From Candidatus Sulfomarinibacteraceae bacterium (GTDB lineage Bacteria > Acidobacteriota > Thermoanaerobaculia > Thermoanaerobaculales > Sulfomarinibacteraceae): a stretch of DNA of 64,000 nt. The notes beneath the pieces were generated by a model that was not told the origin of the DNA, made no database searches, and was given only the letters and a program-made list of their open reading frames with translations. Each line of letters begins with the position of its first letter. Position 1 is the first letter of the stretch. The position numbers and the translations under genes were made by a program. This document shows, piece by piece, positions 17,919 to 37,316 of the stretch. The stretch is from assembly GCA_963796455.1 (NCBI GenBank), contig CAWCLO010000004.1:800001-864000 (forward strand). Reading direction: 5' to 3'.

Positions 17919-18770
17919 CACTGCTGTCCAAAACAGATTGTCATGAAGTTGCCCACCTGACAACACGTGGATTACGGGTTGGTTTTTGGCATATCCGGTT
18001 CGTGGTTCGCAGGTACCCGATCCCGATCCCGAATCGCAGCGGCAGCGACAGGCAGCAGCGAACAGGGACAGCGACAGGAAACAGCGGTCAGCGATCAGTA
18101 GTCAGCGATCGGCGGCAGCGGTCATGAGTCCATGCGACGAAGTGGCCACCTCCGGGTCGTTCAACAGAAGGAGTATCCGGTGGGCGTCCGATGTCAAGGA
18201 CAGGCAGGGTGCAGGGCATCCTTGACATCGGCCGCCACACCGGCTTGTGGGTATGGGCATGAACGACCCGGAGGTGACCATGTCCAACGCCGCCGCGAAC
18301 ACCAACCTCGTTGCCCACTCGAAAGCCCTCGAAGCAGCAGGTATCGCTATCAAGCTCGTGATGAGGGTTCCAGCTCCGCTGAAATCCATAGCCGATCAGG
18401 TGATCCGATCGGCGAGTTCAGTCCCTGCGAACCTGGCAGAAGGCCACGGCCGATTCGGTAGAGACCGGTTGAACCACTGGAGAATCGCCTACGCCTCGGC
18501 CAAAGAGGTCGACAGCCACTTGCAGCTCCTCGCCCACGCCGGGGCGATCAGCCCGAACGGAGCCGGTGAAGCGATGAACGCCTTCGATCACGTCCGTGCG
18601 ATGACCTGGCGTTTACTCAACCCAAAGTCTTGATTTCAGGGCTCCATACCAGTCAAACGTGACGCTGACTTCTGTTCGCTGACGCTGAACACTGATCGCT
18701 GTTCCCTGTCCCTGACGCTGGCCCCTGTCGCCGTCCCTGAACGCTGTCCGAAACACTGTCTTGGACAAGA
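17919..18770 (+). mobile_element. Duplicated four-helix-bundle element, copy 1
   Basis: Colinear with 36501-37316; 11/12 terminal IR tgtccaaaacag/ctgtcttggaca; inverted low-complexity flanks. Confidence 0.7.
18280..18633 (+). CDS. Four helix bundle protein (23S rRNA IVP / TIGR02436-like)
   Basis: DQVIRSASSVPANLAEGHGR...IAYASAKEVDSHL; SD ggaggt before ATG 18280. Confidence 0.88.
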   Translation: MSNAAANTNLVAHSKALEAAGIAIKLVMRVPAPLKSIADQVIRSASSVPANLAEGHGRFGRDRLNHWRIAYASAKEVDSHLQLLAHAGAISPNGAGEAMNAFDHVRAMTWRLLNPKS

Positions 18771-18894
18771 TCGATCCTCCGCCTTGAATCCAGCATCCAG
18801 AAAACGGGCGGTTTGGAAGATATCCGAGCTTCGTGCGTAATCCTCTTCATGAACGAATTGCTAAGATGGTTCTCTCAACTCCGGAGGTGAAGTC

Positions 18895-20388
18895 ATGGGG
18901 TTCACGATCCTGATAACTGCGTTGATCGTCATTCCGGTCCTGCTCTTTTTTGCGTATCTGGTGATCCGGGTTCGTTATAAAAAGGCTGGGCCCGATGAGG
19001 CATTGATCGTCTTCGGTCGGCGGAGGATCTTCGGCAAAAAGGTCCGCTCGGAGAAAGGCGAGATCGAAGGATTTCGCATTATCCGCGGCGGCGGAACCTT
19101 TGTGTGGCCGGCGTGGGAACAATACGAGGTGTTGTCGCTTCGGATGATGACCCTCGAGATCGACATGCCGCACGTCTACACGATCCAGGGCATTCCCATC
19201 AACGTGAAGGCGGTGGCCCAGGTCAAGGTCCAGGGCGATATCGGACACATCCGAAGCGCCGCCGAGGGCTTTCTTGGCATGCCGGTCGATGACATCCAGG
19301 CAACCATCAAGGAAACAGTTGCCGGTCACCTCCGCGGGATCGTCGGAACCTTGACGGTCGAGGAGCTCTATCGAGACCAGCGTCGTTTCCAGGAGAAGGT
19401 CCGCGAGGAAGCCCACGTCGATCTCGAAGGAATGGGCTTCGAATTCCGTTCCTTTGTGTTCCGGGCCATCCAGGACGACCAGGGCTACCTCAATGCGCTC
19501 GGTCAGCCCAAGATCCAGGAAGCGCTCAAAAACGCCCGAATCGCCACCGCCGGCGCCGACCGCGATGCCAAGATCGAAGAGGAGCAAGCGCGGCAGCAGA
19601 AGGAACAGAAGCGGATCGGTGTGGACACCGAAATTGCCGAGGCCGACAAGGCATTGAGCCTCAAGGTCGCGTCCATCAAAAAGGAAGTCGATGTTGCCGA
19701 CGCCATGGCGATCAAGGCGGGCGAGATGGAGCTCAAGGTTCAGGATATCCAGATCGCCGATCAGGAGGTCAAACGGCAGAAGCTCGAACTCAATGCCTCG
19801 ATCCGCGAACAGGCGGACGCCAAAAAGTACGAGGCCGAACGCCTGGCCGATGCGAAGAAGTACACCGTCGAACAGGAAGCCACGGCGGAGCGGCTACGCA
19901 GAGAGCAGGCGGCAATGGCGCTGCAGGCCGAGGGTATTGCGAAGGCCGAGTCCGAGTCCGTCCAGCGCCGACAGATCGGTCTCGCCGAAGCCGAGGCGAT
20001 CCAGGCCAAGGGCGACGCGGAGGCGGGAGCCCGACGCAAACTTGCCGAGGCCCTCAAGCTCTACAATGAGGCCGGTCTTTCGATCGAGGCCCTCAAAGTA
20101 CTGCCCGAGATCGCTGCGGCGGTCTCCGAGCCCCTCGCCCGTGCCGGCGAGACAACCATCATCTCCACCGGAGGCGGCCCGGGTGACGGCACGGGTGCCG
20201 CTCGTCTGACCGACGATGTGATTCAGGTTCTCTCGCAGCTCGGGCCGGTAATGAAACAGCTCTCAGGCGTGGATCTGGACAATCTACTGCAAGACCTCGC
20301 CCGTTTGCCGGGAGCGGTTGCCGACAAGGCGAAAACTAAACCCGAAACGGCCGCCAAGGACGCCGGTAAGGTCTTCGGTTCGGACTAG
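18895..20388 (+). CDS. Flotillin family SPFH protein
   Basis: N-terminal TM, YKKAGPDEALIV, GGGTFVWP, GHLRGIVGTLTVEEL, GYLNALG, AEA-rich coiled coil. Confidence 0.9.
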   Translation: MGFTILITALIVIPVLLFFAYLVIRVRYKKAGPDEALIVFGRRRIFGKKVRSEKGEIEGFRIIRGGGTFVWPAWEQYEVLSLRMMTLEIDMPHVYTIQGIPINVKAVAQVKVQGDIGHIRSAAEGFLGMPVDDIQATIKETVAGHLRGIVGTLTVEELYRDQRRFQEKVREEAHVDLEGMGFEFRSFVFRAIQDDQGYLNALGQPKIQEALKNARIATAGADRDAKIEEEQARQQKEQKRIGVDTEIAEADKALSLKVASIKKEVDVADAMAIKAGEMELKVQDIQIADQEVKRQKLELNASIREQADAKKYEAERLADAKKYTVEQEATAERLRREQAAMALQAEGIAKAESESVQRRQIGLAEAEAIQAKGDAEAGARRKLAEALKLYNEAGLSIEALKVLPEIAAAVSEPLARAGETTIISTGGGPGDGTGAARLTDDVIQVLSQLGPVMKQLSGVDLDNLLQDLARLPGAVADKAKTKPETAAKDAGKVFGSD

Positions 20389-20396
20389 AGGGAACG

Positions 20397-21515
20397 ATGA
20401 GTCAGCGCAAGCTCAACGCCCTGCTCTTCGAGCTCCAGACGGCAAATTCGCCGCTTGCTCAGGCCAAGATTCTGGCCCGAGCCTGGCGAACCGTCCGCGA
20501 GCTCAGCCCGACGGACCGCAAGTTGCTTGCGCGACATGCGGGATTCGATGGGGCCGGCGAAATCCTGGAGGGAATCTCGACGAAAAAGGGCGGGATGGCA
20601 CCGGCCATGTTGCTCCGGGCTCTGACCGACGCACGGAATGCCGACGGATCGACCGTCCGCAATCTGCTGGATGGTCTGCGCGATCCCGAGCGACGCGAAG
20701 AGACGGTGGCCGGCGGCCTCGATTACGCGGCTGAGCTGCTTCGAAAACCGGGTGAAGATGAGCCCGCACCGGGGGTCGAAGAGGCTCTGGGTCAGCTCCA
20801 GGCGGTAGAGTCAAAGGTGGAGGAGACGCCTGAAGAGGCCCTGGCCGCTCTCGGGGCCTTGGATATCAAGGGAGAGGCCGCCGAGACCGAAGCACAGGTC
20901 CCCGAGGCGGCGACGCCCGCCGAACCCGAGCCGGTGCCGGAGGTGACCCCGGAGTTCAAGTTGACGATGAAGCCGCCGGCGCTCCCGATACCGCCACCGC
21001 CGCCGGCAAAGGTTCGTGCAAAACCCGAACAACAGGCCGTCGACTGGAGCCGCTGGCAATCTGGGCCAGAAAAGGAACGTCCCGCTCCGACCCCGAGACC
21101 CGATGCTCCGGCTACGGGACAACACGCCTCCGTACCCAGTTTTGATGCCAGGAAAGTGCTCGAGGCCCTCGGTGCGGAGGGGTCGGTCTTTTCGCGTCTG
21201 CGGGTGCTTCGCCGGGAGCTCCAGGGTTTCAAGGGCTCGAGCCTCGAGACGGTACGCAATTTGGTCGAGGTCTTTCCTCCAGGGTGGGCGCGGCGCCGCG
21301 CGCTGTCCGCGCTCCTCGAAGCGGGGATTCCCGAGAACACCGGCGACGCGGTGGATCTGGTGGGGGATTTTGATCGCGAGCTCGATCGGCGCTGGTGTCT
21401 CGGCATCCTCGCGCGCTCAGGCAGGCTTCGCGGCCAGGAACTCGAGCGTGCCCTCGATATGCTCGAGTCTCCGGCAGCCAGGCGAAGGATCGAGTCTGCG
21501 GCCGAGGTGGGTTGA
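20397..21515 (+). CDS. Hypothetical protein with Pro/Glu-rich linker
   Basis: 372-aa ORF with SD directly after flotillin. Confidence 0.7.
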   Translation: MSQRKLNALLFELQTANSPLAQAKILARAWRTVRELSPTDRKLLARHAGFDGAGEILEGISTKKGGMAPAMLLRALTDARNADGSTVRNLLDGLRDPERREETVAGGLDYAAELLRKPGEDEPAPGVEEALGQLQAVESKVEETPEEALAALGALDIKGEAAETEAQVPEAATPAEPEPVPEVTPEFKLTMKPPALPIPPPPPAKVRAKPEQQAVDWSRWQSGPEKERPAPTPRPDAPATGQHASVPSFDARKVLEALGAEGSVFSRLRVLRRELQGFKGSSLETVRNLVEVFPPGWARRRALSALLEAGIPENTGDAVDLVGDFDRELDRRWCLGILARSGRLRGQELERALDMLESPAARRRIESAAEVG

Positions 21516-21520
21516 GACGC

Positions 21521-23407
21521 CTATTCAGGCGTGCTGTGCATCCGCAGCAGTTCTTGAAAGCGGGGGTCGTCGCGAATCGGATCCCAATCGGGGTCGAGCC
21601 GGAGGTTTGAAACGGACAACCAACCCGGCGTTCGCAGTGATTTTTCAATCCTCTTGACCGCCTGGTAGGGTTCGTCGACCCAGGCGTAGATCTTGGCCAG
21701 CCGGACGAGGTGGCTGTGGCCGGCCATGGCGTCGGACGTGACCGGCAGGAGCTCGACCGCCCGTTCCCCGGCCTCGATTGCCTGGGCCTTGTCGCCCGTC
21801 AACGCATAGGCCCATCCAAGTGCCGCGTGAATCGCTGGATCTCCGGGTGACAGATCTCTCGCGTGTTGCAGGTACTCAAGAGCCGCGCCGCAGCTGTCGA
21901 TGGAAGGCCCCGAGGCCCCGGCGAGCACGTCAACTTCGCACTCAACGAGAACCCTCGGGAGCATGGCCTCGTCGATCGGATCGGGGATCAACTCGCCCGC
22001 CGTGGCGAGCGCGTCCCGTGCCGCGTCGAAGTCACGCTCGTACTTGGCCTGTTCGTACCAATACAAGAGTTGTTGGCTTGGATCCTTATGCGGCATGGCC
22101 TCGATCATCCGTCGCGATTCCTCGAGCGATCCGTCACGGGCCCGGACGATTCTCGCGTAGAAAACATAAGGATAGATGTCGTCGGGTGCCATTTCGACGG
22201 CCCTCCGACAGAAGTCGATTCCGTTGGACCAGCGTCTCATCCGTCCATAGGTCGAGGCGATGTCGAGTACGTAGATATCGCTTTCCGGGTCGAGATCGGC
22301 TGCCCGACTGAGTGCAACGACCGCTTCCTCCCACCGACCCTGGCGTCGAAGGACGACGCCCATTGCGGACATGATCTCGGGATCGTTCGGTCGGCCGTTG
22401 GCGGCCATGCTGAACTCGGTGAGTGCCTGTTCGTAGTTGCGCTGGCCCCAATAGTAGTAATACCCGAGCGCACGATGGCCGTCGGGCAGGTCCGAATTGA
22501 TCTCGAGCGCGCGGTGGGCCGAACCGATCGCCCCCGCCAGACGCTGCGGCGACCGGTCGTAACGAAAATGGAATGTCAGACTGTGGCTTTCGCTCAGGGC
22601 AGCGTGGGCTGCCGCAAAATTCGGATCGAGAGAAACCGCTTCCTGGAAAAACCTTTCGGCAGTGGCTATCTCCTGGCGTTCAAAGCTCCCTTCGTGGAGA
22701 ATCCCTCGCAGAAAAGCCATGTAGGCGTCCATATTGTTGGTGGGACGGTCATCTACGGCCTGCCGTTCGGATTCGTCAAGAGTGATCCGCATATTGTCGG
22801 TCGCGGCGTGGACGACGCTGGATTGAACTGAAAAGACATCTTCCATGGGACGACGAAATCGTTCGTTCCACACGACGTTTCCGTCCGTCGCGTCGATAAG
22901 AGACGCCTCCATCACGAGCTCTCGGCCTTCGGCGGACTCGTGATCCCACAGGACGGAACCGGTCAAAATGTAATCGACGCCAAGATCCTGTGCGATCTCG
23001 TGCACGGGTCGGGACCCCTGTTCCGAGTCGATATTCGGGTGGGAGACCACTCCGAGGTCTGAAATCGCCCCCAACCGATCGGTGATTTCCTCGGTCATCC
23101 CGACGGTCAGAAAAGCGTCTTCGGTAACGCCGAGGTTGTGGAATGGCATCACGACGATCCTGGTCACGTCGGTGCTCTGAGTCGGAACGACAGGTGTCTG
23201 GCTCTGGTATCTCTTACACGCCGGAGATCCAGTCAGCAGGATGGCGATGGCGGTCGAAAGCAGAACGCCGCGAATCGTTCCCCGAGCAAACCGGCCCGAG
23301 CGGTCAATTCGCGATTCACACATCGCGCCGTCCAGCCCGAAGAAGCTTGCTCGGCAATTGCTAGGAAATCTGTAGTGGTGTGGCATCGTTTTCGGTCCCC
23401 GGCACAA
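21521..23407 (-). CDS. TolB-like/FlgO N-domain plus TPR repeat protein (start uncertain)
   Basis: IVVMPFHNLG, GMTEEITDRL, LGVDYILTGSV, PTNNMDAY, TPRs, LRLDPDWDPIRDDPRFQELL. Confidence 0.8.
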   Translation of the reverse strand: MCRGPKTMPHHYRFPSNCRASFFGLDGAMCESRIDRSGRFARGTIRGVLLSTAIAILLTGSPACKRYQSQTPVVPTQSTDVTRIVVMPFHNLGVTEDAFLTVGMTEEITDRLGAISDLGVVSHPNIDSEQGSRPVHEIAQDLGVDYILTGSVLWDHESAEGRELVMEASLIDATDGNVVWNERFRRPMEDVFSVQSSVVHAATDNMRITLDESERQAVDDRPTNNMDAYMAFLRGILHEGSFERQEIATAERFFQEAVSLDPNFAAAHAALSESHSLTFHFRYDRSPQRLAGAIGSAHRALEINSDLPDGHRALGYYYYWGQRNYEQALTEFSMAANGRPNDPEIMSAMGVVLRRQGRWEEAVVALSRAADLDPESDIYVLDIASTYGRMRRWSNGIDFCRRAVEMAPDDIYPYVFYARIVRARDGSLEESRRMIEAMPHKDPSQQLLYWYEQAKYERDFDAARDALATAGELIPDPIDEAMLPRVLVECEVDVLAGASGPSIDSCGAALEYLQHARDLSPGDPAIHAALGWAYALTGDKAQAIEAGERAVELLPVTSDAMAGHSHLVRLAKIYAWVDEPYQAVKRIEKSLRTPGWLSVSNLRLDPDWDPIRDDPRFQELLRMHSTPE

Positions 23408-23496
23408 TCGTTCCTTGTGCCAAAGATCATAGCGCAGAGTTCTACAACCGGCCTCAGTTTTGCGGGCATTTCGCCGAAATTTTACTTTCGACCCGA

Positions 23497-25710
23497 TCAG
23501 GTGGTCGGTGTGCCTGCGTTCCGCAATCTCTCGGCGAGCAAGGTGTGCCTGGTGCGGACGGTAGCATTGTGAATTGCCCTGGCAAGCGCCCGTCGCGACC
23601 CGACAATCACCACCAACCGTCGTCCACGGGTAATCGCTGTGTAGAGCAGATTGCGCTGCAACATGACATGGTGCTGGTGGTGGAGAACGATTACCACCGC
23701 GGGATATTCGCTTCCCTGACTTTTGTGAATTGTGCAGGCGTAGGCAGGCACGATGTCCTCGAGTGATTCGGGTGGCACGATGACCCGGCGGCCATCGAAT
23801 TCGGTGGTCAACTGCCGCTCGCGGTGGTCGATGGCGAGGATCCGTCCGAGATCGCCATTGAATATGTCGAGGTCATAATTGTTGCGGACCTGCATGATCT
23901 TGTCGCCGACTTTGAATCGCCGCCAACCAACGACCAGCTCGCGGCTTCCCGGTGTCAACAGCTCCTGCAGACGTTCGTTGAGGCGGGTCACTCCGAGCTC
24001 ACCCCGGTGCATCGGCGCAAGAACCTGGATGTCCCTGATGGGATCGAGCTTGAAGTGTTCAGGGATTCGGGTGGTCACGAACTCGATGGCGAGTTCGGCG
24101 GCCTCGGCGGGATCGTCACGAGCGACAAAATAGAAATCGCTGTCGCCGTCGTCGTTTTCGATCTTCGGCATGCCACCGGAGTTGACCCGGTGAGCATTGT
24201 CGACGATCAGACTGCGCCGGGACTGACGGAAGATGTGTTCGAGCCGGATCACCGGAAGCGAGCCCGATTTGATCAGGTCGGCGAGGACGTTGCCGGGGCC
24301 GACTGAAGGCAACTGATCTGCGTCCCCGACGAACACGAGTCTGCATCCAGCCGGAATTGCCTCCATGAGGGCAGCCGCCAACTCGATGTCGAGCATCGAA
24401 ACCTCGTCGATCACCAGACAGTCTGCGGCGATCGGATTATCGCGGTTGCGGCTGAATTGCCTTGTCTTTGGATTGAATTCGAGCAACCGGTGGATCGTTT
24501 TTGCTGCCAGGCCGGTAGATTCCGTCAGCCGTTTGGCCGCGCGGCCGGTTGGCGCCGCCAGCAGGACACAAAGCTCTTTGCGTCCGAGAATCTGCACGAT
24601 GCCGCGGACCAGGGTCGTCTTGCCGGTGCCGGGGCCACCGGTGATCACGACCATTTTTTCCCGCAAAGCGGCTATCAGGGCTTCTCGCTGGCGGGTGGCG
24701 AGGCGGATATTGGCTTCCCCCTGATACCAGGAGACCGCGGTATTGATGATGATCGGTGCGCAGGCGTCCGGTCGTTCCAGGATGGCCGCGAGTGTGTACG
24801 CGACAAGCTCTTCGGCCTCGGCGAGACGCGGCAGGTAGATCGCAGGGCTTTCGTTCTGCCTCGGATGGATCACGACCATGCGTCTCGCGACGAGTCCTGC
24901 GAGGGCCGACGGGAGTGCTTCGGATGAAATCTCGAGCAGGTTTGCGGCGTTGGCCAGCAGCTCCTCTTCGGGGAGAAAGACGTGGCCCTGACCGGCCGCC
25001 TCCTGCAGTGAGTGGAGGATACCGGCTTCTATGCGTTCCGGGGCGTCGGCGGCGATTCCGAGCTGACGTGCAATACGATCCGCGGTCAGGAATCCGACGC
25101 CGAACACCTCCTCGGCGAGCTGAAAGGGATTGGACCGAACCACTTCCAAAGCCGCGGGGCCGTAGCGGCGAAAGGCCTTGACGGCGATCCCGGGCGCGAC
25201 GCCGTGCCCGGTGAGGAAGATCATCACCTGCTGGATGCCGCGATGTTTCTCCCAGGACTCCCGGATGCCCTCGAGCGTGGCGTTGCCGATGCCGCGAATC
25301 TTCAGGAGCCGCTCGAGGTCGGTGTCGAAAACGTCCAGCGTTTCGAGACCGAAGGCCTCCACGATCTGGGCGGCACGTTTGGGCCCGACGCCGCGGATCT
25401 TTCCCGAACCCAGGAAGCCGCGCAGGCCTTCGAGGGTTGAGGGCGCGATCTGAACATAGGATTCAGCCTCGAACTGCTCGCCGTACCGAGGATGGTTGAC
25501 CCATCGCCCGCTGAGGCGGAGCTGGTCGCCCTGGTGCGCGCCGAGAAGGGGGCCAATCGCCGTCAGCGCCGGTTTGTCGTCGGGTTGAAGCCTTACAACG
25601 CACCAACCGTTCTCTTCGTTGGCGAACAGAACGCGTTCAATCCGGCCTTCAGCCGTCTCTCGCTCCTCTGATCTTGTACCGAGCATCGCTGGAGATTGTA
25701 CGGCAATCAC
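23497..25710 (-). CDS. recD2: ATP-dependent RecD-like DNA helicase RecD2
   Basis: HhH N-terminus, TGGPGTGKTT, AAPTGRAAKRL, DEVSM, GDADQLPSVGPG, TIHKSQGSEY. Confidence 0.93.
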   Translation of the reverse strand: MIAVQSPAMLGTRSEERETAEGRIERVLFANEENGWCVVRLQPDDKPALTAIGPLLGAHQGDQLRLSGRWVNHPRYGEQFEAESYVQIAPSTLEGLRGFLGSGKIRGVGPKRAAQIVEAFGLETLDVFDTDLERLLKIRGIGNATLEGIRESWEKHRGIQQVMIFLTGHGVAPGIAVKAFRRYGPAALEVVRSNPFQLAEEVFGVGFLTADRIARQLGIAADAPERIEAGILHSLQEAAGQGHVFLPEEELLANAANLLEISSEALPSALAGLVARRMVVIHPRQNESPAIYLPRLAEAEELVAYTLAAILERPDACAPIIINTAVSWYQGEANIRLATRQREALIAALREKMVVITGGPGTGKTTLVRGIVQILGRKELCVLLAAPTGRAAKRLTESTGLAAKTIHRLLEFNPKTRQFSRNRDNPIAADCLVIDEVSMLDIELAAALMEAIPAGCRLVFVGDADQLPSVGPGNVLADLIKSGSLPVIRLEHIFRQSRRSLIVDNAHRVNSGGMPKIENDDGDSDFYFVARDDPAEAAELAIEFVTTRIPEHFKLDPIRDIQVLAPMHRGELGVTRLNERLQELLTPGSRELVVGWRRFKVGDKIMQVRNNYDLDIFNGDLGRILAIDHRERQLTTEFDGRRVIVPPESLEDIVPAYACTIHKSQGSEYPAVVIVLHHQHHVMLQRNLLYTAITRGRRLVVIVGSRRALARAIHNATVRTRHTLLAERLRNAGTPTT

Positions 25711-25733
25711 GCAGCTTTGTGGCGTTTTCCGGT

Positions 25734-26327
25734 CTACTCGGTGCCAGCAAAGCCCATCGAGAGTCGAATATTGTGTGCGTTCTCTGCGTCTGTGAGAGCC
25801 TCGAGTAGCGTCAGTGCGACCTCGATGGCGGTTGCAGGTGACGTGGAAGTCACGACATTTCCGTCGCGAACGATTGACTGCGAAGACACCTCGACCCCGA
25901 AATCGGCAAGTTGGCGCATTCGCCGGCCGTCGCCGAGATGATAGGTGGTGGCGCGGCGGCCCTTCAGAACACCCGAGTTGGCGAGCGGGAGCGCACCGAC
26001 GCAGATCGAGGCGATGGGCATCGACCGTTCGTCGAAGGCCCGGATGAGATTCGAGACGCGTTCCGAATAGGCATCGTCGTAGAACCCGTGTTCTTCGAAT
26101 CCACCCGGAACCGCCAGGGCGTCAAAGGATTCCACATCCACCTCGTCGACCAGCACATCGGGGAGGATGCGCAAACCGAAAGTACAGCGGACCTCCCTTT
26201 CGAGCCCGGCGGTCACCACCTCGATCGGTTCCGATCCTTCGGTGGACGCCCAGCCGAGCACGTCGAAGAAGGCAGCCGTTTCGAAGACCTCGGCGCCTTT
26301 TGGTATCAACAACAGCACTCGTTTCAC
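25734..26327 (-). CDS. DJ-1/PfpI family protein
   Basis: ALAVPGG, SICVGA, GRRATTY, VVTSTSP. Confidence 0.88.
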   Translation of the reverse strand: MKRVLLLIPKGAEVFETAAFFDVLGWASTEGSEPIEVVTAGLEREVRCTFGLRILPDVLVDEVDVESFDALAVPGGFEEHGFYDDAYSERVSNLIRAFDERSMPIASICVGALPLANSGVLKGRRATTYHLGDGRRMRQLADFGVEVSSQSIVRDGNVVTSTSPATAIEVALTLLEALTDAENAHNIRLSMGFAGTE

Positions 26328-26355
26328 TGCGAGTCTCCTTGACCTATTACTTGGA

Positions 26356-28940: not shown

Positions 28941-28963
28941 GGAAACCTCCAAGGATCTTGATT

Positions 28964-29407
28964 CTACCGATCCCGCCGGGGATCGATCTGTCTGTACTTT
29001 TCGAGTTGTCGCGATTCGCTGTCCAGTTCGGGCAGTCCGTCGTTGATGTGGATCCACGGCACGTGCTGGTCAAAAAAAACGTGCGCCTGCGGCTCCCGAT
29101 CAACCGGTCCCTCGATACAAGCGGAAGCAATGTGCATTTCCCCGGGGGATAGTTTCGAGGCGTAGAACATTGTCGTCCCGCAGGTCGGGCAGAAGCCCCG
29201 CCGGCTCTGACGGGACGATTGATACCAAGAAACCTGGTTCTCTCCCTTCAAGAGCACGAATTTCTCTTCGGAGACGCCGAGCCACGTGACAAAGGCGGCG
29301 CCGTGGGCCTGCCGGCAGAAGCGGCAATGGCAGTGGACACAGAAGAGAGTCGGCCCTCCGGCCTCGAATTGCACTTCCCCGCACAGGCACTGACCGGTGA
29401 ATTTCAT
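28964..29407 (-). CDS. GFA family protein
   Basis: GQCLCG, CHCRFCR, RGFCPTCG. Confidence 0.88.
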   Translation of the reverse strand: MKFTGQCLCGEVQFEAGGPTLFCVHCHCRFCRQAHGAAFVTWLGVSEEKFVLLKGENQVSWYQSSRQSRRGFCPTCGTTMFYASKLSPGEMHIASACIEGPVDREPQAHVFFDQHVPWIHINDGLPELDSESRQLEKYRQIDPRRDR

Positions 29408-29683
29408 TGTGGTGTGAACTCCTTTCCTGGATACCGGAGAAGCGAGGTTCGGATCAGGTGATCCACTAATGGTTGTCCAAAGAACCGAGCGCGTAGGTGT
29501 CCACGATAAGGCGCAAAGAACGGAGAATGTAGCTGGCCACAAAAATACCCCACGTCGTTCTCACCGAGAGCGTTTTGACAGATTGTCAATTGAGCATACC
29601 CTTTGCAACGGACACTACGGGAAATACGACGACTGCCCCGAAAATGTTCAAAAGGCCTCAACGAATCGAGAATCGAGAATCGA

Positions 29684-30043
29684 TCAGAGCGTTTCGAGAT
29701 CGTGAACCATCCGGTGATCGTCGGCGTCTCCCGTATTGAGGGTCTCAGCCGGCTCGAAGAGAAGGATGTGGACCTCCTCATCAGCCCTCGGACAGTGCTC
29801 GATTCCGCGGGGAACGATGATGAACTCGTCCTTCTCAACGACGACGGTCCGGTCGCGAAACTGCATCTCGAGTGTGCCGTCGAGGACCAGGAAGAGTTCG
29901 TCCTCAGAAACGTGAGAGTGCCAGACGAACTCGCCCTGGAGCTTGGCGAGGCGGACATGTTGCCCGTTGAGCGAGCCGACTATCTTGGGGCTCCAGTGTT
30001 CGCTGAACTGCCCGAGCTTTTCGCGAAGATTGACTTTATCCAT
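29684..30043 (-). CDS. Cupin domain protein
   Basis: EHWSPKIV, GEFVWHSH, EDELF, VPRGIEHCP. Confidence 0.88.
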   Translation of the reverse strand: MDKVNLREKLGQFSEHWSPKIVGSLNGQHVRLAKLQGEFVWHSHVSEDELFLVLDGTLEMQFRDRTVVVEKDEFIIVPRGIEHCPRADEEVHILLFEPAETLNTGDADDHRMVHDLETL

Positions 30044-30260
30044 CGTGTGCCGGGCGAACGGGTGCTGCAAAAAACCGGATGCCGAGGCCGAGGCCGAGCA
30101 CAATGGTGGGGATGACGAACCCCCAGATATTCTGACGAACAAATGTCGGAATGAACGCACCGATGATGACTCCAAACAAAACGCAATAGATCTTCAGAAC
30201 GCCGATGTCCCAGATTCCGAGTGCTCGTGTCCTGCGGTCCGCCCACTGGATCAATTCCAT
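30036..30260 (-). CDS. Small membrane protein
   Basis: SD ggagga; 2 hydrophobic segments. Confidence 0.65.
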   Translation of the reverse strand: MELIQWADRRTRALGIWDIGVLKIYCVLFGVIIGAFIPTFVRQNIWGFVIPTIVLGLGLGIRFFAAPVRPAHDG

Positions 30261-30293
30261 TGTTCCTCCACGAATGTTCGTTGATTTCGCGCC

Positions 30294-31037
30294 TCAATTG
30301 GTCGTTGGAGCACCACGATCTCGGCACCCGGGAGATCTGGCGTCCGGCATACAACCGACGATGCCGTCGATCTCGGCCAGATCCTTGATCGTGAATGTCG
30401 GTTCCGGAAATCCGTTGAGTTCGAGCCCATTCGGGTTGAACCAGCAGGTGTCGATTCCAAATGCCGCACCGCCCGCGATGTCGGAGCTGAGGCTGTCGCC
30501 GATCATCAAGACCTCGGACTTCGAGGGGTTGCCCATTCTGGAAAATGCTTCGACCATGAAGGCCACTTGCGGCTTGGCGACGCCGATCTCGTCCGAAATC
30601 ACCACATCCTCGAAGAAGCCTCGGATGGACGACTGGCTGAATCGGGAACGTTGGACAATAGCAATCCCATTGGTCGCAAGCAGAAGTCGGTGCTTGGTCG
30701 ACAATCGCTTCACCAGATCTTCGGCTCCCGGCAACAACTGTGTCTGTTGTCCCAGGGCCCTCATAAAGGAGAGGTTGAATTGCACCGGATCGAGGTCGAT
30801 GCCGAGCTCGTCGAAGAGGTCTTTGAAGCGGGCTATGCGCAATTCCTCGGAAGAGATCTCTCCGTTTTCGAATTTCCGCCATAAACCGGCGCTGATACCG
30901 GCGTAGGTCTGGTGGATTTCGGCGGAATAGCTGAGATCGTGGCTCCGGGTCGTCTCCATCAGGGCCACCTTTTCGCCGCTGCGGAAATCGAAAAGCGTGC
31001 CGTCAGCGTCAAAGACCAACCACTGATATGGCGGCAT
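30294..31037 (-). CDS. HAD hydrolase, YjjG-like noncanonical pyrimidine nucleotidase
   Basis: FDADGTLFDF, TNG, GVAKP, MIGDSLSSDIAG. Confidence 0.85.
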   Translation of the reverse strand: MPPYQWLVFDADGTLFDFRSGEKVALMETTRSHDLSYSAEIHQTYAGISAGLWRKFENGEISSEELRIARFKDLFDELGIDLDPVQFNLSFMRALGQQTQLLPGAEDLVKRLSTKHRLLLATNGIAIVQRSRFSQSSIRGFFEDVVISDEIGVAKPQVAFMVEAFSRMGNPSKSEVLMIGDSLSSDIAGGAAFGIDTCWFNPNGLELNGFPEPTFTIKDLAEIDGIVGCMPDARSPGCRDRGAPTTN

Positions 31038-31039
31038 CC

Positions 31040-31426
31040 TCAAGCGACCTGATAGATCTGGATGACGTTGCCGCAGGTGTCTTCAAAAGCCGCGACCATC
31101 GTGCCGCCCACATCGGTGGGGTCCATGGTGAACACCACGCCGAGCTCCTTGAGTCTCGCGTGCTCCGCCTCCATGTCGTCGACCTGGAACGCGGTCAGCG
31201 GGATGCCCTCATCGAAGAGCGATTTTTGGTAAGCCGCCGCTCCGGAATGAACGTTCGGCTCGAGAACGAGCTGGGTTCCCTCGGGCTCGTCGCGCGACAC
31301 CACCGTCAACCACCGGAAATCTCCCGCCGGGAGGTCGACAGCTTTGATGAATCCGAGAACCTCGGTATAGAACTCGAGGGCGCGCTCCTGGTCGTTGACG
31401 ATCACACTGTTCAATTTGATTTTCAC
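31040..31426 (-). CDS. VOC/glyoxalase family protein
   Basis: ALEFYTEVLGF, FEDTCGNVIQIYQ. Confidence 0.88.
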   Translation of the reverse strand: MKIKLNSVIVNDQERALEFYTEVLGFIKAVDLPAGDFRWLTVVSRDEPEGTQLVLEPNVHSGAAAYQKSLFDEGIPLTAFQVDDMEAEHARLKELGVVFTMDPTDVGGTMVAAFEDTCGNVIQIYQVA

Positions 31427-31504
31427 TGGTGTCTCCGTTTGAACGGCCGCCGGTCGGTTTTCGCGAAATTCGGGCCCCTGAACTCTGGTGGGGGACGCCT
31501 CACT

Positions 31505-31892
31505 TTACCAGGCCACAATCCTTGGAAACGGTTCACCGCAATGTTCGGTGGTGGCAAGCAAGTGGTATTTTCCGCCCTCTTCGCTGCAGATCGCTTGGGT
31601 CACAAAGGCCTGATCGCCGTCTGCAAACCGGAACACGAAGACAAAGCTGTCGTAACCCACGTCATTCGGTTCAGCCTCGGCCCGAGCATACCTCCGGCGA
31701 CCGACGTGCAGTGTCTCCAGCAGCGTCCACTTATTGTGTTCATTGTCCGGGAATTCGGAGACCCCGATCCTCTGCAACAAATCGGAGATCATGCGATCCC
31801 GCGATAGCTTGAGCTCGCGGGCCAGAGATCCGAGTTCGAGAACCCCGGGGTTCCGATGGTGCTGCTGGTGGCTTTTTCTTTTTGAAAAACAT
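31505..31892 (-). pseudogene. Hypothetical gene with apparent +1 frameshift
   Basis: SD aaggag plus ATG 31892 (MFFKKKKPPAAPSEP); frame switches in gaaccccgggg to GVLELGSLARE... Confidence 0.5.
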
Positions 31893-31893
31893 C

Positions 31894-32154
31894 TCACTCC
31901 TTCGAACTCGAAGGCCTCCAGTCCATTTTCATATAAACGTCGCCCCGGCTCAGTTCGTCCAGCATCTGGAGCAGGCGCTTTTCCCTGGTGGCCGGTCGTT
32001 TGGCGCGCCCGATCCAACCGATGTAATCGTTCTGCTGGTAAGGCGGCCGGCTGCGGTAGGCCTCGAGAAGATGACGTTCTCCGAGCGCGTCCAGCACGAA
32101 ATCCGGCATCGGATGAATCTTTCGTGACAGCTTGGAAAAATCCTCATTGGTCAT
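31894..32154 (-). CDS. YdeI/OmpD-associated family protein
   Basis: RPPYQQNDYIGWI, AKRPATREKRL. Confidence 0.8.
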   Translation of the reverse strand: MTNEDFSKLSRKIHPMPDFVLDALGERHLLEAYRSRPPYQQNDYIGWIGRAKRPATREKRLLQMLDELSRGDVYMKMDWRPSSSKE

Positions 32155-32184
32155 TGTGCCTCCGAAGGGTATATATCGAGCAGT

Positions 32185-32580
32185 TCACTCAAGGTGTTCG
32201 GCATCGGGGGGTGTTGCGACCCAGGAGTGGCGTCTTGCTTCGTAAACGGAGACTCGTGGTGGTGGAAAACCCGGGTCGGCAAAGGCGCCGATAGGTATGG
32301 CCGTAGTGTCGGGCTGCGAGTGCAAACAATAGAACACGGTCGCTCCACAGGAGGGACAGAAGTTGTAGGTGATCTCGTTGCCGCTGTCGGCCACCCGCAG
32401 AAATTGTCGCGACGATCCGTCTACCGTCACCTTCTGGTTGGGAAACCATGCCTGGGCTCCGAATACGCTCCCAGTTCGCTTCTGGCAATCAAGACAGTGA
32501 CACATGGAGATCCGAGCGGGCTCCCCGTGGGCGATCACCGAGAGCCTGCCGCAACTACACGAGGCTTTGCGAGATGTGAT
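32185..32580 (-). CDS. GFA family protein with ATC at the expected start position
   Basis: ITSRKASCSCG, CHCLDCQKRTG, FCPSCG; SD ggaggtga precedes ATC 32580. Confidence 0.75.
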   Translation of the reverse strand: MTSRKASCSCGRLSVIAHGEPARISMCHCLDCQKRTGSVFGAQAWFPNQKVTVDGSSRQFLRVADSGNEITYNFCPSCGATVFYCLHSQPDTTAIPIGAFADPGFPPPRVSVYEARRHSWVATPPDAEHLE

Positions 32581-32627
32581 CCCTCACCTCCATAGAGTAT
32601 TCGCCGTGGTCACGCGTATCGGACCGA

Positions 32628-32990
32628 TCAACTTGCCGGTTGGCTGCCGAGGGCCGAGAGAGTCCACAGTGCAGCCGCCGCATCGATCACCCCGAAGAGA
32701 ATCAGGGCTGATGGAGCGAAGCCGAGAACCACGAATGCGATGAAAAAAGCCAGCACCGAGAGACGGCCATAAGCCGTGGCCCGGAGAAACATGGTCATCT
32801 CGTTGCGCGCCGCGGTGGAGTAATAGTAGCCGAGGATGAGCACCAACATCCCCACCACACGGACCCAGACCTCGTTCGTTTCCGGAATCCGGAACAACGA
32901 GAGGAGAACATTCGGCACGATCACGAGCACCGCCCCGAGGATGAAAAGATAGATCGAAAATACAAAGACGCTGAGTGCGGCTCGACTCAT
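32628..32990 (-). CDS. Four-TM membrane protein
   Basis: SD gggagg; hydrophobic. Confidence 0.7.
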   Translation of the reverse strand: MSRAALSVFVFSIYLFILGAVLVIVPNVLLSLFRIPETNEVWVRVVGMLVLILGYYYSTAARNEMTMFLRATAYGRLSVLAFFIAFVVLGFAPSALILFGVIDAAAALWTLSALGSQPAS

Positions 32991-33134
32991 GAACTACCTC
33001 CCGTGGATTCTCGTTCGAGTATCTCACGACCGGTCGGGTGCATCGACGCGCGCCTTTTTACCGTCGGCTGGCTGAAACGCGGTTGCGGCCAGCAACGAAA
33101 AAAAATGGACTGAAGTGGCTGTTCTCATTTCAGT

Positions 33135-33623
33135 TCAAACCTCTCCCGCGTCGCCTGAAATTTTGGTCGGCCCATCAACAATCCAGATGTTTCCGCATTT
33201 CCGGCAGTGCCAACGGTCGCCCCGGAACTGCCGGAAATACCTGCTCATTGCCAGGAGCGCCATGATGGGGTGTTCGCGTCGGAGCGTCTTGTGCGTGGAG
33301 CCGCACTCGGGGCATTCCTGATGATCTGCGTCTTCACGGTACTCCGGTGGAATGTCGATCTCATGGTCGGTTTCGATCGACTGCAGAAGGAGGCGAGCCT
33401 CCCCGGCCTTGTCACTCCTCACCGCGACGGAGATGCCTCCGGAGTGGCCGGGATTCAACCACGACGTTCCGAGTATTCCACCTTGCTCGATACGCGTTTC
33501 GATACCAGCGGCTTCGAGTCGTCCGGCAGCGAGTTCGGCTTCCAGTGGGCTCGTGAGCTCGGCAATCACCTCGAAATCGGCGACCGTTTCATCGTCAGCA
33601 GGTTTGTATTCTTCAGAACTCAT
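33135..33623 (-). CDS. DUF2007-like domain plus zinc ribbon
   Basis: EAELAAGRLEAAGI; CPECGS...CRKCG. Confidence 0.7.
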   Translation of the reverse strand: MSSEEYKPADDETVADFEVIAELTSPLEAELAAGRLEAAGIETRIEQGGILGTSWLNPGHSGGISVAVRSDKAGEARLLLQSIETDHEIDIPPEYREDADHQECPECGSTHKTLRREHPIMALLAMSRYFRQFRGDRWHCRKCGNIWIVDGPTKISGDAGEV

Positions 33624-34407
33624 CGGAGTGATCCGGGGTCACCCTTCCGGCCTGACTTGGCCTTTGAGCAGTGACTGCGTTCGACCCGAGCACCGCAATG
33701 GTCTCGTCACCATTGTTGCTGATCTCCTCGATCGAGAATGCTCCGTCGAGGAGAGCGGTTGCACGGGAGAGGAATTGCGTGAACGATATATGAGACCACA
33801 CGTGGAAGTGGATGCTGTAACGAGACTGCATCAATTCCAAGGCACGTTGGCTGGCATTGGCTTCCGAAACCCCTTCCACGAATCGAACCCATTCGAGGTA
33901 GTGCTGCTCGCGGGACCCTTTCGGTCCGTCCCGCCAATCGCGTTCGAGGTGGGCCCAGGAAGTAACCGGTCGCCGGCGATCGAAGGACAGGGTTTTGTTC
34001 GGTACGACGACCAGAACCCTGCCACCCGGCCGCAGGACTCGGGCCCAGGCCCGCAGCGCGCTGATCGGGTCTTCACAGTGTTCGATGAGGTGACTCGCGA
34101 TCACGAAATCCTGGCTATCGTCCGGTACGCCCTGCAGCGTCTCCGCGTCGCTGACGATTTCGACCTGGACAAGACCGTCTGAAGAGATTTCCGGATAGTG
34201 GTGTTTCAGTCCCTCGTTGTCCAGCCTGTCGACGTAGGTCACTCGCATCGCCTCAGAGGGGGGCAGGGGATCGTGGAGTGCGCCGATCTCGATTCCGGTT
34301 CCGAGCAGATATCGGTGCCCGAATGCGACGCGCCGTCTGGTCCGCTGGGCCCTCGATCCGAATCGGAGCCGCGCCAGCACCCGGTCGAAAAGGAATCGAA
34401 TTTCCAT
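33613..34407 (-). CDS. SAM-dependent methyltransferase domain protein
   Basis: GIEIGALHDP, DFVIASHLIEH, RVLRPGG. Confidence 0.8.
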   Translation of the reverse strand: MEIRFLFDRVLARLRFGSRAQRTRRRVAFGHRYLLGTGIEIGALHDPLPPSEAMRVTYVDRLDNEGLKHHYPEISSDGLVQVEIVSDAETLQGVPDDSQDFVIASHLIEHCEDPISALRAWARVLRPGGRVLVVVPNKTLSFDRRRPVTSWAHLERDWRDGPKGSREQHYLEWVRFVEGVSEANASQRALELMQSRYSIHFHVWSHISFTQFLSRATALLDGAFSIEEISNNGDETIAVLGSNAVTAQRPSQAGRVTPDHSDEF

Positions 34408-34459
34408 CGGTCAACCATACCGACGACTCATGGATTGCCGAAACGAGAATCTTCGGATG

Positions 34460-34717
34460 TCAGACGAAATGTGCGTCCAGGCGTTTTTTGAGCGCCCAGC
34501 GAACATCCTCCGTCAGAGAATGCCAACGAACACCCTGGATGGCGCCTTCGAGGGCGTAGAGCATGCTGTAACAACCGCTGCTGGTGGCCTGCCCGATACT
34601 GATGACCGCCTCGACGCTACCCAGGTCGGCGAGTTGGTCGCGGTTTTCGATCCCGATGCATAGCAGCTTTTCCGCCAAAACGTCACCGATGTTCGGCAGA
34701 TCGGTGAGGTGGCTCAT
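34460..34717 (-). CDS. TfoX/Sxy C-terminal domain protein
   Basis: LTDLPNIG, LYALEGAIQGVRW. Confidence 0.85.
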   Translation of the reverse strand: MSHLTDLPNIGDVLAEKLLCIGIENRDQLADLGSVEAVISIGQATSSGCYSMLYALEGAIQGVRWHSLTEDVRWALKKRLDAHFV

Positions 34718-34733
34718 CGGTCGGTCTCCCTGA

Positions 34734-35081
34734 TTACCCGAAAAAGGTCCCGTATGCGTCGCGCTCGACTCCGGCGAGGACTTCACTGAACCGTTCCTTC
34801 TGGCCGATCCAGTCGCAGTAGAGCCAGCGCCTTTTTGTGCGCTGCCACGATACCGACCAACGCTCGCCGACGGTATCGTATCGGAAGCGGGCCACGGGCT
34901 CCGTTGCCCACTCGGTGGTTGAGTTGCCGGCCGTTGGCGATTCCCGGAACAGGGTGACGTCGTTGCCTCGAAAACGGTAGGAAAAACGAAGCTGATTCCG
35001 GTACTCCGGGGGGACGAGATTCATGCAGAATCTTTTGAGGTCGCGGTCCGCCTCGGAGCGTTTTTCGTCTGGAAGGGTCAT
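34734..35081 (-). CDS. DUF3024-like protein
   Basis: PVARFRY...W, ERDAYGTFFG C-terminus. Confidence 0.7.
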   Translation of the reverse strand: MTLPDEKRSEADRDLKRFCMNLVPPEYRNQLRFSYRFRGNDVTLFRESPTAGNSTTEWATEPVARFRYDTVGERWSVSWQRTKRRWLYCDWIGQKERFSEVLAGVERDAYGTFFG

Positions 35082-35172
35082 CTTCGATGATGATTGTATC
35101 GAATCCAGAGGTCTTCGAACAACTCGGCAGTCACGCGGCCGGGGCGGAGCGATCAGTCAGACGAGGAAACCA

Positions 35173-35673
35173 TTAAGAATACAGAGCTGTGCCAGGGTCC
35201 TCTTCGGACATTTTGACCATTTTCTGAAACCGTAAGCCCATCTTTTCAAGCAGTCCGATCGATGCGAGATTCTCCACCGAGGTCAGTCCCACGATGGTCT
35301 CGATACCAAGCGTTCCACGGCCGTATTCCATCACCGCGGAAGCAGCCTCGAAGGCATATCCTGATCTCCAGTATTCGGGCAGCAGCGCAATGCCGACATC
35401 CGAGACATCCAGGATCTCTCGGTACAACAGGCCGCAGACACCAATTGGAGTTCGGTCATCCACAAGCTCGGTCAAGAACTGGCCGTAACCATCCTCCCTC
35501 CGATACGACCAGGGCCCGCTCTGGATGAAGCGCCTCGCATCGGCCAGATTCCGGACGCCCTTATCGCCGATATTGGCAAGAAAGGAGGCTTCGTTGACCA
35601 GCCGCAGTACAAATTCGGCGTCGCTGGCCTGCAAATCACGAAGCCGCAACCGCGGAGTTTCCAGAATCACCAT
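35173..35673 (-). CDS. GNAT family N-acetyltransferase (RimJ/RimL-like)
   Basis: LETPRLRLR, IGDKGVR, YWRSGYAFEAA, NLASIGLLEKMG. Confidence 0.88.
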   Translation of the reverse strand: MVILETPRLRLRDLQASDAEFVLRLVNEASFLANIGDKGVRNLADARRFIQSGPWSYRREDGYGQFLTELVDDRTPIGVCGLLYREILDVSDVGIALLPEYWRSGYAFEAASAVMEYGRGTLGIETIVGLTSVENLASIGLLEKMGLRFQKMVKMSEEDPGTALYS

Positions 35674-35799
35674 GTTTCGCGCCGGTCGATTCGGATTTGA
35701 GTTTCTGATCTGGTGGTCGTTCCAGCAAAAATCACGTTTGTTTCCCTGATTGCTGTGGAAAATCCCGTGGCTGTGCCTCGAGCCGCGGCAGAACGATCT

Positions 35800-36030
35800 T
35801 CACGGGCGACTTGCTGAGATGACCTTGAGGTATTCATCTTCGACCTTTTTCCGGGCCCAGGGTGTTTTGCGCAGAAATTTCAGGCTGGATTTCACCGACG
35901 GGTCACTGTTGAAACAGCGGATCCTGATGCGTTTCCCCAACTCGTTCCAGCCGTAGTGCTGCACCAGGTGATTCACGATCATCTCCAGGGTCTGGCCGTG
36001 GAGAGGGTTGTTCGCTTGTTGCTGAGTCAT
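35800..36030 (-). CDS. VF530 family (DUF2132) DNA-binding protein
   Basis: [38 protein letters not shown]. Confidence 0.88.
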
Positions 36031-36042
36031 CGAGTTGCCGGT

Positions 36043-36405
36043 CTACCTCTCCTGCTCGAATTCCTCCTGGCAGTCGATGCAGAACGGGGTTTCCGGCTGC
36101 GCTTCGAGGCGCTCAGGGTGGATTTTTCCATTGCAGCTCCGGCACAACCCGAAGGAGCCCTTGTCGACGGCCGTCAATGCTCCCTCGATCTGCTTCAGCT
36201 TGATTTCGAGCTGCCGCTTGTTCAGCGCCGCCATGTTCTGCATCTGGATCGCATCGGCTCGCGACAGTCTGCCGATCGGGAGATCGAGGTCCACCGGTTT
36301 GGAGTCATCGGCCGTTCTCCCGAGCAGGGTGTTGACCTCGGCTTCCATGGTCAGAAGTCGTTGTCGATAATTTTCAGTCTGGTCACTTTTCTTGGCTGTC
36401 ATCAA
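36043..36405 (-). CDS. TraR/DksA C4-type zinc finger protein
   Basis: IGRLSRADAIQ, FGLCRSC...ERLEAQPETPFCIDC. Confidence 0.88.
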   Translation of the reverse strand: MMTAKKSDQTENYRQRLLTMEAEVNTLLGRTADDSKPVDLDLPIGRLSRADAIQMQNMAALNKRQLEIKLKQIEGALTAVDKGSFGLCRSCNGKIHPERLEAQPETPFCIDCQEEFEQER

Positions 36406-36500
36406 TTCTCCGGCTATCGAACCTGGTGTTTCACGGTATCAAAGAGGCCCGCGAACGCCTATTCAAGGCTCGTGGCGGGTTTGCATTGTGGAGATCAGTA

Positions 36501-37316
36501 CACTGCTGGCCAAACCAGATTGTCATGGAGTTACCCACCATACAACACGTGGTTTACGAGTTGGTTTTTGGCATATCCGGTTCGCGGTTTGGGCGTACCC
36601 GATCCCGATCCCGATCCCGAATTGCAGCGCCAGCGACAGGGACAGGCAACAGCGAACAGGGACAGCGACAGGGAACAGCGATCAGTGATCAGCGGCAGCG
36701 GTCAGGAGTACAGGCGGCAAAGTGGTCACCTCCGGGTCGTTCAAAGGAGAGGGATAGCCGGTGGGCGGCCGATGTCAAGGACAGGCAGGGTGCAGGGCAT
36801 CCTTGACATCGGCCGCCACACCGGCTTGTGGGTATGTGCATGAACGACCCGGAGGTGACCATGTCGTCAGCCGCCACGAACACAAACCTCGTTGCCCACT
36901 CGAAAGCCCTCGAAGCAGCAGGAATCGCGATCAAACTCGTGATGAGAGTTCCCGCTCCGCTGAAATCCATAGCCGATCAGGTGATCCGGTCGGCAAGTTC
37001 AGTCCCTGCGAACCTGGCGGAAGGGCACGGCCGATTCGGTAGAGACCGGTTGAATCACTGGAGAATCGCCTACGCCTCGGCGAAAGAGGTCGACAGCCAC
37101 TTACAGCTCCTCGCCCACGCCGGGGCGATCAGCCCGAACGGAGCCAGTGAAGCGATGAACGCCTTCGATCGGGTCCGTGCGATGACCTGGCGGCTCTTGA
37201 ACCCGAAGATGTGAGCGCTGTTCGCTGCCGCTGATAACTGAACACTGCTCCTGACTACTGTTCGCTGTTGCTGACGCTGTCCCTGAACGCTGTCTGAGAC
37301 TCTGTCTTGGACAAGA
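36501..37316 (+). mobile_element. Duplicated four-helix-bundle element, copy 2
   Basis: Colinear with 17919-18770; only plus-strand gene inside a roughly 38-kb minus-strand run. Confidence 0.7.
36861..37214 (+). CDS. Four helix bundle protein (23S rRNA IVP / TIGR02436-like)
   Basis: 5 aa differences out of 117 versus 18280-18633. Confidence 0.88.
   Translation: MSSAATNTNLVAHSKALEAAGIAIKLVMRVPAPLKSIADQVIRSASSVPANLAEGHGRFGRDRLNHWRIAYASAKEVDSHLQLLAHAGAISPNGASEAMNAFDRVRAMTWRLLNPKM

Follow-up and report, generated by a model that had tools for sequence, protein, structure and literature searches.

The question raised by this locus is how an element of some 0.8 kb, which encodes a four-helix-bundle protein of the PF05635/TIGR02436 family and no transposase, comes to lie twice in unrelated surroundings within a 64,000-nucleotide stretch of a Candidatus Sulfomarinibacteraceae genome (contig CAWCLO010000004.1, positions 800,001 to 864,000; the window), and what its gene does there. 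The evidence given below separates a shell, derived from an insertion sequence (IS) of the IS4 family and very probably moved in trans by a transposase encoded elsewhere, from a cargo with a history of its own, the hairpin of which may act as a promoter on single-stranded DNA (ssDNA).

The two copies, 17919..18773 (855 bp) and 36501..37319 (819 bp), lie on the plus strand, as do their features unless a strand is given, and align end to end from cactgctg to ctgtcttggacaaga, with unrelated sequence outside. The original prediction had claimed this colinearity, and it was also right about the order of parts (left end, (GATCCC)n, purine tract, hairpin, gene, complementary tract, terminal inverted repeat) and about the lack of a transposase in either element. 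Its boundaries were correct at the start and not at the end, the true ends being CAC...GTG with an 18-bp imperfect inverted repeat rather than a 12-bp one. Nor is the element merely present twice: counted with profiles of four element parts across the genome of the window (G000, a metagenome-derived assembly, 90.5% complete), the family occupies 226 loci (131 left and 168 right ends, together with 116 pieces of the open reading frame, ORF) and covers at least 1.8% of the genome, with 65 near-full-length ORFs, 58 of them intact. Copies in G000 are intergenic and found in both orientations, and full copies are over-represented in convergent gaps, which hold 26 of the 65 and make up 409 of all 2591 gaps (orientations counted with a simple purpose-made gene caller). 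The module gene was found in 58 of 77 genomes of the bacterial family, frequently in tens of copies, and phylum-wide in 2 of 201 genomes, both of them Sulfomarinibacteraceae members; congeners had anywhere between 0 and at least 59 copies, and 7 of the 24 (several incomplete) gave no match.

The ends of this family are sharp. In 83 two-ended copies shorter than 900 bp, of which 33 have a full gene, the consensus ends are CACTGCTGTCCAAAACAG and CTGTCTTGGACAAGAGTG, and G000 holds 255 end-like sites, against 1-9 for shuffled 18-mers. In copy 1, the repeat at 17919..17936 equals the downstream end of the autonomous IS4-family elements described below and is followed by what appears to be the remainder of the IS4-derived end, the non-coding 3' part of the IS (17937..18012, with a weak likeness to autonomous ends, judged by eye); the opposite repeat, the IS4 upstream end, has its last 4 bases damaged (18756..18773), and that of copy 2 is consensus (37302..37319). 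A 9-bp duplication with at most one mismatch flanks 41 of the 83 copies, against a mean of 7.5 and a maximum of 15 for permuted pairs. Heptamer arrays make up 53 of the 83 insertion sites, and one of this preferred target type, (GATGCTG)n at 17904..17918, adjoins copy 1. In such arrays a 2-bp duplication could mimic a 9-bp one, and hence the 30 non-array sites were scored separately. Their flank identity peaks at k = 9 (0.67), with 0.42 at k = 2 and 0.20-0.27 at other lengths, and a 2-bp 'AT' target duplication is ruled out by these sites; 13 of the 30 reach 7/9, against 0.8 by chance, and none is perfect, so that the hops there are old. The shell evidently prefers AT-N5-AT targets, which heptamer arrays supply. 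In the window copies the duplications have decayed (4/9 and 5/9 positions alike), which is why the original prediction saw none; it was right for these two copies and not for the family.

An empty-site check had been suggested with the original prediction. The gap that holds copy 1 (1011 nt) contains no four-helix-bundle gene in any of the 11 congener loci with both neighbours (of 15 fetched), and the empty gap measures 188-255 nt in six congener loci. The surroundings of copy 2 had no synteny in five congeners, and the exact empty allele was not among the assembled contigs of four DNA runs, which does not show its absence. In several congeners the same gap, before the flotillin gene, holds other, unrelated repeats (L339, L341, L342, L348, L351) and resembles an insertion hot spot behind a gene end.

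The same ends also enclose other contents. A gene-less subfamily of seven copies in G000 has 7-9/9 duplications; since gene-less derivatives have spread, the IS4 hop does not require the protein. In these copies (C7:251904, C1:10899 and five more) a different, GTAG-type palindrome replaces most of the hairpin and the gene. The ends enclose the gene module in G006 and palindromes like repetitive extragenic palindromes (REPs) in G008, G084 and G086; the latter are doublets of two kinds (L016, L017, L022 and L028 in G008 and G084; L018, L023 and L027 in G086), as if one IS4 shell repeatedly captured other palindromic repeats. MITEs (miniature inverted-repeat transposable elements) 120-410 bp long and bounded by the same IS4 ends are present in distant phyla (L064, L065, L108, L149; G091, G092); the genomes G091 and G092 have 20-28 end sites each. 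Taken together, ends, duplications and empty sites show the shell, at the level of sequence, to be a non-autonomous cassette of IS4Sa type.

Where, then, is a matching transposase encoded? Among 122 left-end loci examined (121 metagenomic plus L061), 18 complete elements of 1.35-1.71 kb have the same ends and a single transposase gene each. Cassette and autonomous ends match at 18/18 positions on one side and at 18/18 (L097, L118) or 15-17/18 on the other, and in G044 the match of the autonomous element to the cassette's right end continues about 9 bases past the repeat. The transposase consists of DUF4372 and DDE_Tnp_1 and scores 243 bits against NF033592 (cut-off 115); the elements show CA------T ends and a Y-2-R-3-E-6-K motif, and 5 of 15 scorable ones have an exact 9-bp duplication. 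IS4Sa is delimited by a length of 1150-1750 bp, CA------T ends, an 8-10-bp duplication and a YREK motif (PMC2266710, Table 1), and the sequences of the partner elements fit it by size, ends, duplication and motif. This transposase is present in 8 of the 77 family genomes, including the congener G017 with matching ends. Several other candidates were discarded: a DDE_Tnp_1 match in G000 (C7:291107) is without these ends, 498-aa transposases of G006 have the end motif only inside their own 5' coding region, and single left-end matches in G053 and G057 belong to short derivatives rather than autonomous ISs. G000 also contains a three-copy 1.7-kb repeat with a transposase-like ORF (C6:37094-38824, C7:279899-281563, C7:285081-286808) and, with palindromic ends, two Y1 transposase genes in tandem (C4:1143372-1147449). 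The idea of a mobile unit mobilised in trans thus gains support and precision, in the form of IS4Sa-type ends with 9-bp duplications, and movement of the shell by an IS4 transposase acting in trans is very probable.

The cargo tells a different story, and the unit is not 'self-contained' as had been proposed, shell and cargo having separate histories. In G036, the 15 copies examined (of 30) have no common flank 12-mer and are all stop-free, with a dS of 1.16 and a dN/dS of 0.10; about half of those examined in G070 (15 of 26) have a common downstream repeat. Some relatives carry the module within GGYTCATCCG ends, and 5 of the 6 two-ended loci show duplications of about 8 bp; a search for an ISL3 partner of these ends gave none, the two ISL3 transposases found in five genomes being without them. 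Inverted tracts, hairpin and gene are thereby shown, as far as their sequences tell, to be older than the shell, occurring with other ends or with none. Each of the four unrelated PF05635 genes of G000 is bracketed by inverted short arrays with a unit of its own (4/4, by eye); it follows directly on a co-oriented gene and has no hairpin of the present kind. By a strict test applied class-wide, inverted arrays accompany 17 of 30 PF05635 loci and 7 of 1005 control genes. The inverted tracts thus go with the gene family rather than with the IS. Copy 1 has the (GATCCC)n short array (18019..18030), the purine-rich CAGCGA/CAGGGA tract (18037..18125) and the pyrimidine-rich tract complementary to it (18660..18750; limits of both tracts approximate). 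Folding of both whole elements (z -7.5 and -10.2) predicts, as was proposed originally, that the flanks pair to enclose the ORF.

Beside these gene-flanking arrays, G000 has many dispersed short-array families without a gene (for example GATGCTG at 66 loci, ATCGCT at 65, GGAATTC at 47, GAGGAGCA at 46 and GGGAGAAA at 72), several of which match the arrays around a single PF05635 gene, reminiscent of REPs and their REP-associated tyrosine transposase (RAYT). Extended tandem arrays of perfect repeats, reaching 20 or more units of 12-13 nt (the unit varies between copies), directly abut the left foot of the hairpin at L261, L269, L281 and L285 in G036 and at L264, L270 and L276 in G070.

The gene itself (18280..18633 in copy 1, 36861..37214 in copy 2) encodes 117 residues, five of which differ between the copies, and both products score above the PF05635 and TIGR02436 cut-offs; these assignments had been made before and are borne out. 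The AlphaFold model (predicted local distance difference test, pLDDT, 94.6) has the fold of XCC0516 and BT_0352 (template modelling score, TM, 0.79-0.84) and of Avd (PDB 4DWL, 8UB7; TM 0.76-0.81 at 8-12% identity). The homologue structures 2GSC and 2RLD have five chains each, and by analogy with homologues described in passages of PMC4990558 and PMC10053308 the protein may form a pentamer and bind nucleic acid.

Selection on this gene is marked. The dN/dS of the 58 intact G000 genes is 0.14, and synonymous and nonsynonymous variants number 137 and 54 when shared and 39 and 67 when private (p 5e-9). The two EF-Tu genes of G000 differ by 13 bases and 2 residues, and a pair so nearly alike indicates that random base errors are not dominant. 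The ends have drifted by 7% from the consensus and remain on both sides of only 30 of the 58 intact genes; a premature stop occurs in 1 of 65 genes, against about 10 expected even at 1.8% drift. By this comparison the gene has been kept intact after its ends decayed. Linkage falls along the gene (r2 0.057 near and 0.021 far; 0/1000 permutations), the 5' and 3' thirds barely correlate (r 0.07) and some modules are inverted relative to their own ends, a pattern by which the copies are seen to be recombination mosaics. From linkage decay, inverted modules and intact genes it follows that recombination refreshes copies long after insertion and that functional alleles prevail. The allele pattern fits cis action of the protein during conversion; it fits host-level selection too, because private variants are below neutral.

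What would make the gene active? In copy 1 the hairpin spans 18142..18281, with an outer stem (18142-18163 with 18260-18281), an internal loop (18164-18174 opposite 18246-18259) and an inner stem; that of copy 2 spans 36722..36862. Both arms bear TTGACA. Reading the reverse strand of the left arm, a TA comes 16-18 nt after it in 101 of 102 copies; on the right arm this is so in 0 of 102. Copy 1 thus has, on the minus strand, a promoter-like signal at 18170..18197 (TTGACA 18197-18192, 16-nt spacer, TA 18175-18174) and, on the plus strand, TTGACA at 18222..18227 without a TA at 16-18 nt; the equivalents in copy 2 are TTGACA 36778-36773 with TA 36756-36755 on the minus strand and TTGACA 36803-36808 on the plus strand. 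The -35 box, -12T and -11A are present in 109 of 111 copies. The predicted fold has -12 within a pair in 103 of 109 copies, leaves -11 free in 109 of 109 and has a loop of 10-14 nt in 107 of 109, at the place where the bubble of an open promoter complex lies (about -11 to +2). Among relatives the spacer takes 36 distinct forms with full Watson-Crick swaps and TTGACA stays constant.

In duplex DNA the TTGACA-N16/17-TA signal faces away from the gene, and scans for TA spacing and for consensus promoters found no forward promoter toward it; in a read-through RNA, folding predicts that the outer stem would pair with the Shine-Dalgarno sequence (GGAGGT, 18270..18275 in copy 1, assigned by sequence) and the start codon. 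Should the bottom strand fold, the left arm would serve as non-template strand, with the template continuing into the gene. As DNA, the bottom strand gives the better fold in 79 of 115 copies, a weak and kin-related difference. One RNA run gave no contig on the element, which does not show absence. On this geometry we judge the hairpin somewhat likely to be a promoter active on ssDNA. The RNA or ssDNA intermediate first proposed is split: its RNA part is not supported, with no reverse transcriptase (PF00078) match in G000 at 90.5% completeness and no sense-strand preference for G-U, and a role of ssDNA has indirect support, through the promoter geometry, for gene expression and not for the IS4 hop. 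A ComEC-family gene present in G000 offers one source of ssDNA.

These parts can be assembled into a single account. An IS4Sa-type transposase acting in trans would insert the non-autonomous cassette at AT-N5-AT sites. In the duplex chromosome the gene would be silent, lacking a forward promoter, and read-through RNA would hide its ribosome-binding site. On the folded bottom strand the -35 box and -12T would lie in a stem, with an open bubble from -11 to about +1 aimed at the gene; exposure as ssDNA through DNA uptake, conjugation or replication gaps may then, in what is the weakest step, lead to synthesis of the Avd-fold protein. This protein might attach to the folded strand and make it the preferred donor for gene conversion or for tract-directed integration, so that functional alleles would be the alleles that spread. 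For the whole chain, of an IS4-placed module, an ssDNA-switched gene and a protein helping its own copy to spread by recombination, we consider the chances evenly balanced; that the protein acts for its own copy in recombination, a step suggested by analogy, is on its own a tentative idea, somewhat more apt to fail than to hold.

A number of observations weigh against this account. The cognate transposase is absent from G000 (best tblastn E 0.011, 8 queries) and was likewise not found in G006, G008, G084 and G086, and 10 of the 15 scorable autonomous elements are without a duplication. The -7T is missing in 96 of 109 hairpins and present in 56 of 68 ordinary TTGACA..TA sites upstream of other G000 genes, which fits a pre-opened bubble but also a promoter that is weak or dead. 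Hairpin mismatches show a slight strand bias (27 versus 18 distinct events), and the copies are kin. Plasmids gave no match for protein or hairpin, and a pattern scan of viral contigs (79 loci scored from 80 listed of 121) gave no convincing case: 6 of the 79 had long stems, and 2 had a one-armed TA with no gene at the predicted place. Among the seven broken ORFs of G000, six have 1-2-nt indels and are possibly sequencing errors. Private variants are not wholly neutral (pN/pS 0.56-0.72), and host-level selection on each copy would also explain them; in seven end-less copies the private pN/pS is 0.27, on 11 changes. Most end-less G000 copies carry worn remnants of IS4 ends, and spread without ends is not supported in G000.

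A wider version of the account can be framed, and we hold it to be doubtful. PF05635 genes between inverted short arrays might form an undescribed class of enzyme-free selfish module, silent in the chromosome and turned on by a fold-back promoter once its strand is exposed, the Avd-fold product then using recombination to carry its own strand into other copies or matching arrays. MITE shells (IS4 here, another type in relatives) would then be mere lifts, the intervening sequences of rRNA genes and the Avd of diversity-generating retroelements (DGRs) offshoots, and the gene-less heptamer arrays non-autonomous debris.

The simplest rival is a plain mobile insertion cassette (MIC) whose passenger is kept by host-level selection and has no role in its own spread, the host benefiting from the dose of a nucleic-acid-binding or defence protein, or being harmed by mutant subunits in an oligomer. 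The hopping gene-less derivatives, the sub-neutral private variants and the genes intact without ends are all as it would have them. It sits poorly with a copy number of 0 to at least 59 among congeners and none in 7 of 24 (several incomplete), with the buried Shine-Dalgarno sequence and the forward promoter that was not found, and with a constraint far stronger on shared than on private variants; we regard it as rather unlikely. Less probable again is an RNA element like the 23S rRNA intervening sequences (IVSs), in which RNase III would cut the insert from read-through transcripts and the protein would bind that RNA. The protein family is common to 23S IVSs, the RNA fold around the ORF is strong and the Shine-Dalgarno sequence is paired, but sense-strand mismatches show no G-U excess (18 versus 27 distinct events), the copies are intergenic in both orientations, nothing in the window matches Rfam, and the invariant TTGACA with its one-armed TA at promoter spacing is left unexplained.

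The left arm could also be an ordinary outward duplex promoter, whose RNA, by pairing with the left arm of read-through mRNA, frees the Shine-Dalgarno sequence, or which drives neighbouring genes. The near-universal minus-strand TTGACA-N16/17-TA is what such a promoter would look like, yet -7T is there in only 13 of 109 copies and an outward promoter has no need for a conserved unpaired -11, a 10-14-nt loop or a covarying spacer, so we consider it improbable. A still smaller chance falls to an inner module like a REP doublet forming a hairpin (REPIN), moved by a Y1 (RAYT-type) transposase, with the conserved TA belonging to a GTAG guide at the foot of the hairpin: G000 has six Y1_Tnp matches, the plus strand reads GTA at the TA position in 98 of 109 copies and GTAG-type doublets lie inside the same shell in congeners, but the G of GTA varies (11 of 109) and TTGACA is fixed at promoter distance. 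Retro-mobility, with the Avd-like protein partnering a reverse transcriptase or itself required for transposition, is highly improbable: the Avd fold and the long tandem expansions next to the hairpin in G036 and G070 would suit it, but the PF00078 search of the 90.5% complete genome came back empty, and IS4 ends with 9-bp duplications account for the hops, gene-less copies included. An assembly artefact, for which one might invoke the metagenome-derived assembly and some 1-2-nt indels, has a negligible chance, given that copies are distinct (dS below 0.03 in 1 of 1653 pairs), that a contig of run X3 bridges the right junction of copy 1 (18608-19119) and that the family is found in many other genomes.

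The settings of the two copies conform to the intergenic habit of the family. Copy 1, described originally as interrupting the flotillin cluster, lies between a 195-aa gene and the flotillin gene and breaks no ORF. Copy 2 is indeed antisense within a run of minus-strand genes, between a DksA-like gene (36043-36405, minus strand) and a glyoxalase gene (37368-37778, minus strand). The run, of small and mostly minus-strand genes, extends over 21521-63839, includes TfoX N and C, GNAT, glyoxalase, methyltransferase, DUF3024 and DUF3995 genes, and resembles a cassette array or island.

How does this element compare with known systems? The shell is of a known kind, the MIC, as described in passages of PMC3129680, with which it shares, together with MITEs, IS ends without a transposase, a passenger gene, target duplication and shorter gene-less derivatives (MIC231 also appears as a reference title in PMC2266710). 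Unlike those, it has about 200 chromosomal copies, its sister species carry other palindromic cargo in the same shell, its cargo occurs also in other shells or none and stays intact after the ends decay, and a cognate intact IS is lacking in G000 and present in the congener G017. With IS4Sa it has in common the CA------T ends and the 9-bp duplication, the window elements being without a transposase. Searches of the open-access literature turned up no description of a gene module that is flanked by arrays and has a fold-back promoter.

For the cargo, the nearest systems lie elsewhere. The 23S rRNA IVSs with S23p likewise have a PF05635 gene inside complementary flanks and the XCC0516 fold (passages of PMC4990558, which also record the past mobility of intervening sequences as an old, untested idea); here, by contrast, the unit is intergenic rather than in an rRNA gene, has a promoter-like hairpin and an IS4 shell, and its gene is under purifying selection, whereas that of Coxiella is decaying according to the same source. 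The Avd of DGRs has the four-helix-bundle fold in common (passages of PMC10053308), but at 8-12% identity and, here, with no reverse transcriptase found in G000 and no DGR context. PF05635 proteins are common and have no known function outside DGRs, and here the gene is free-standing: some 60 copies are under selection, their ends are defined, and empty sites as well as natural deletion variants are available. Finally, the leading regions of plasmids are known to contain stem-loop promoters that work on ssDNA (passages of PMC9849209, PMC11541004 and PMC12672017). The Frpo/ssi elements of F, ColIb-P9 and pESBL, compared by description only, resemble the present hairpin in that a large stem-loop would rebuild -35 and -10 boxes before a gene; the hairpin described here differs in being chromosomal and multicopy, outside any plasmid leading region and without a plasmid sequence match, in mostly lacking -7T and in having one fixed downstream gene. 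If our reading of the hairpin is true, a chromosomal, multicopy single-strand promoter would extend a mode of control so far described for plasmid leading regions.

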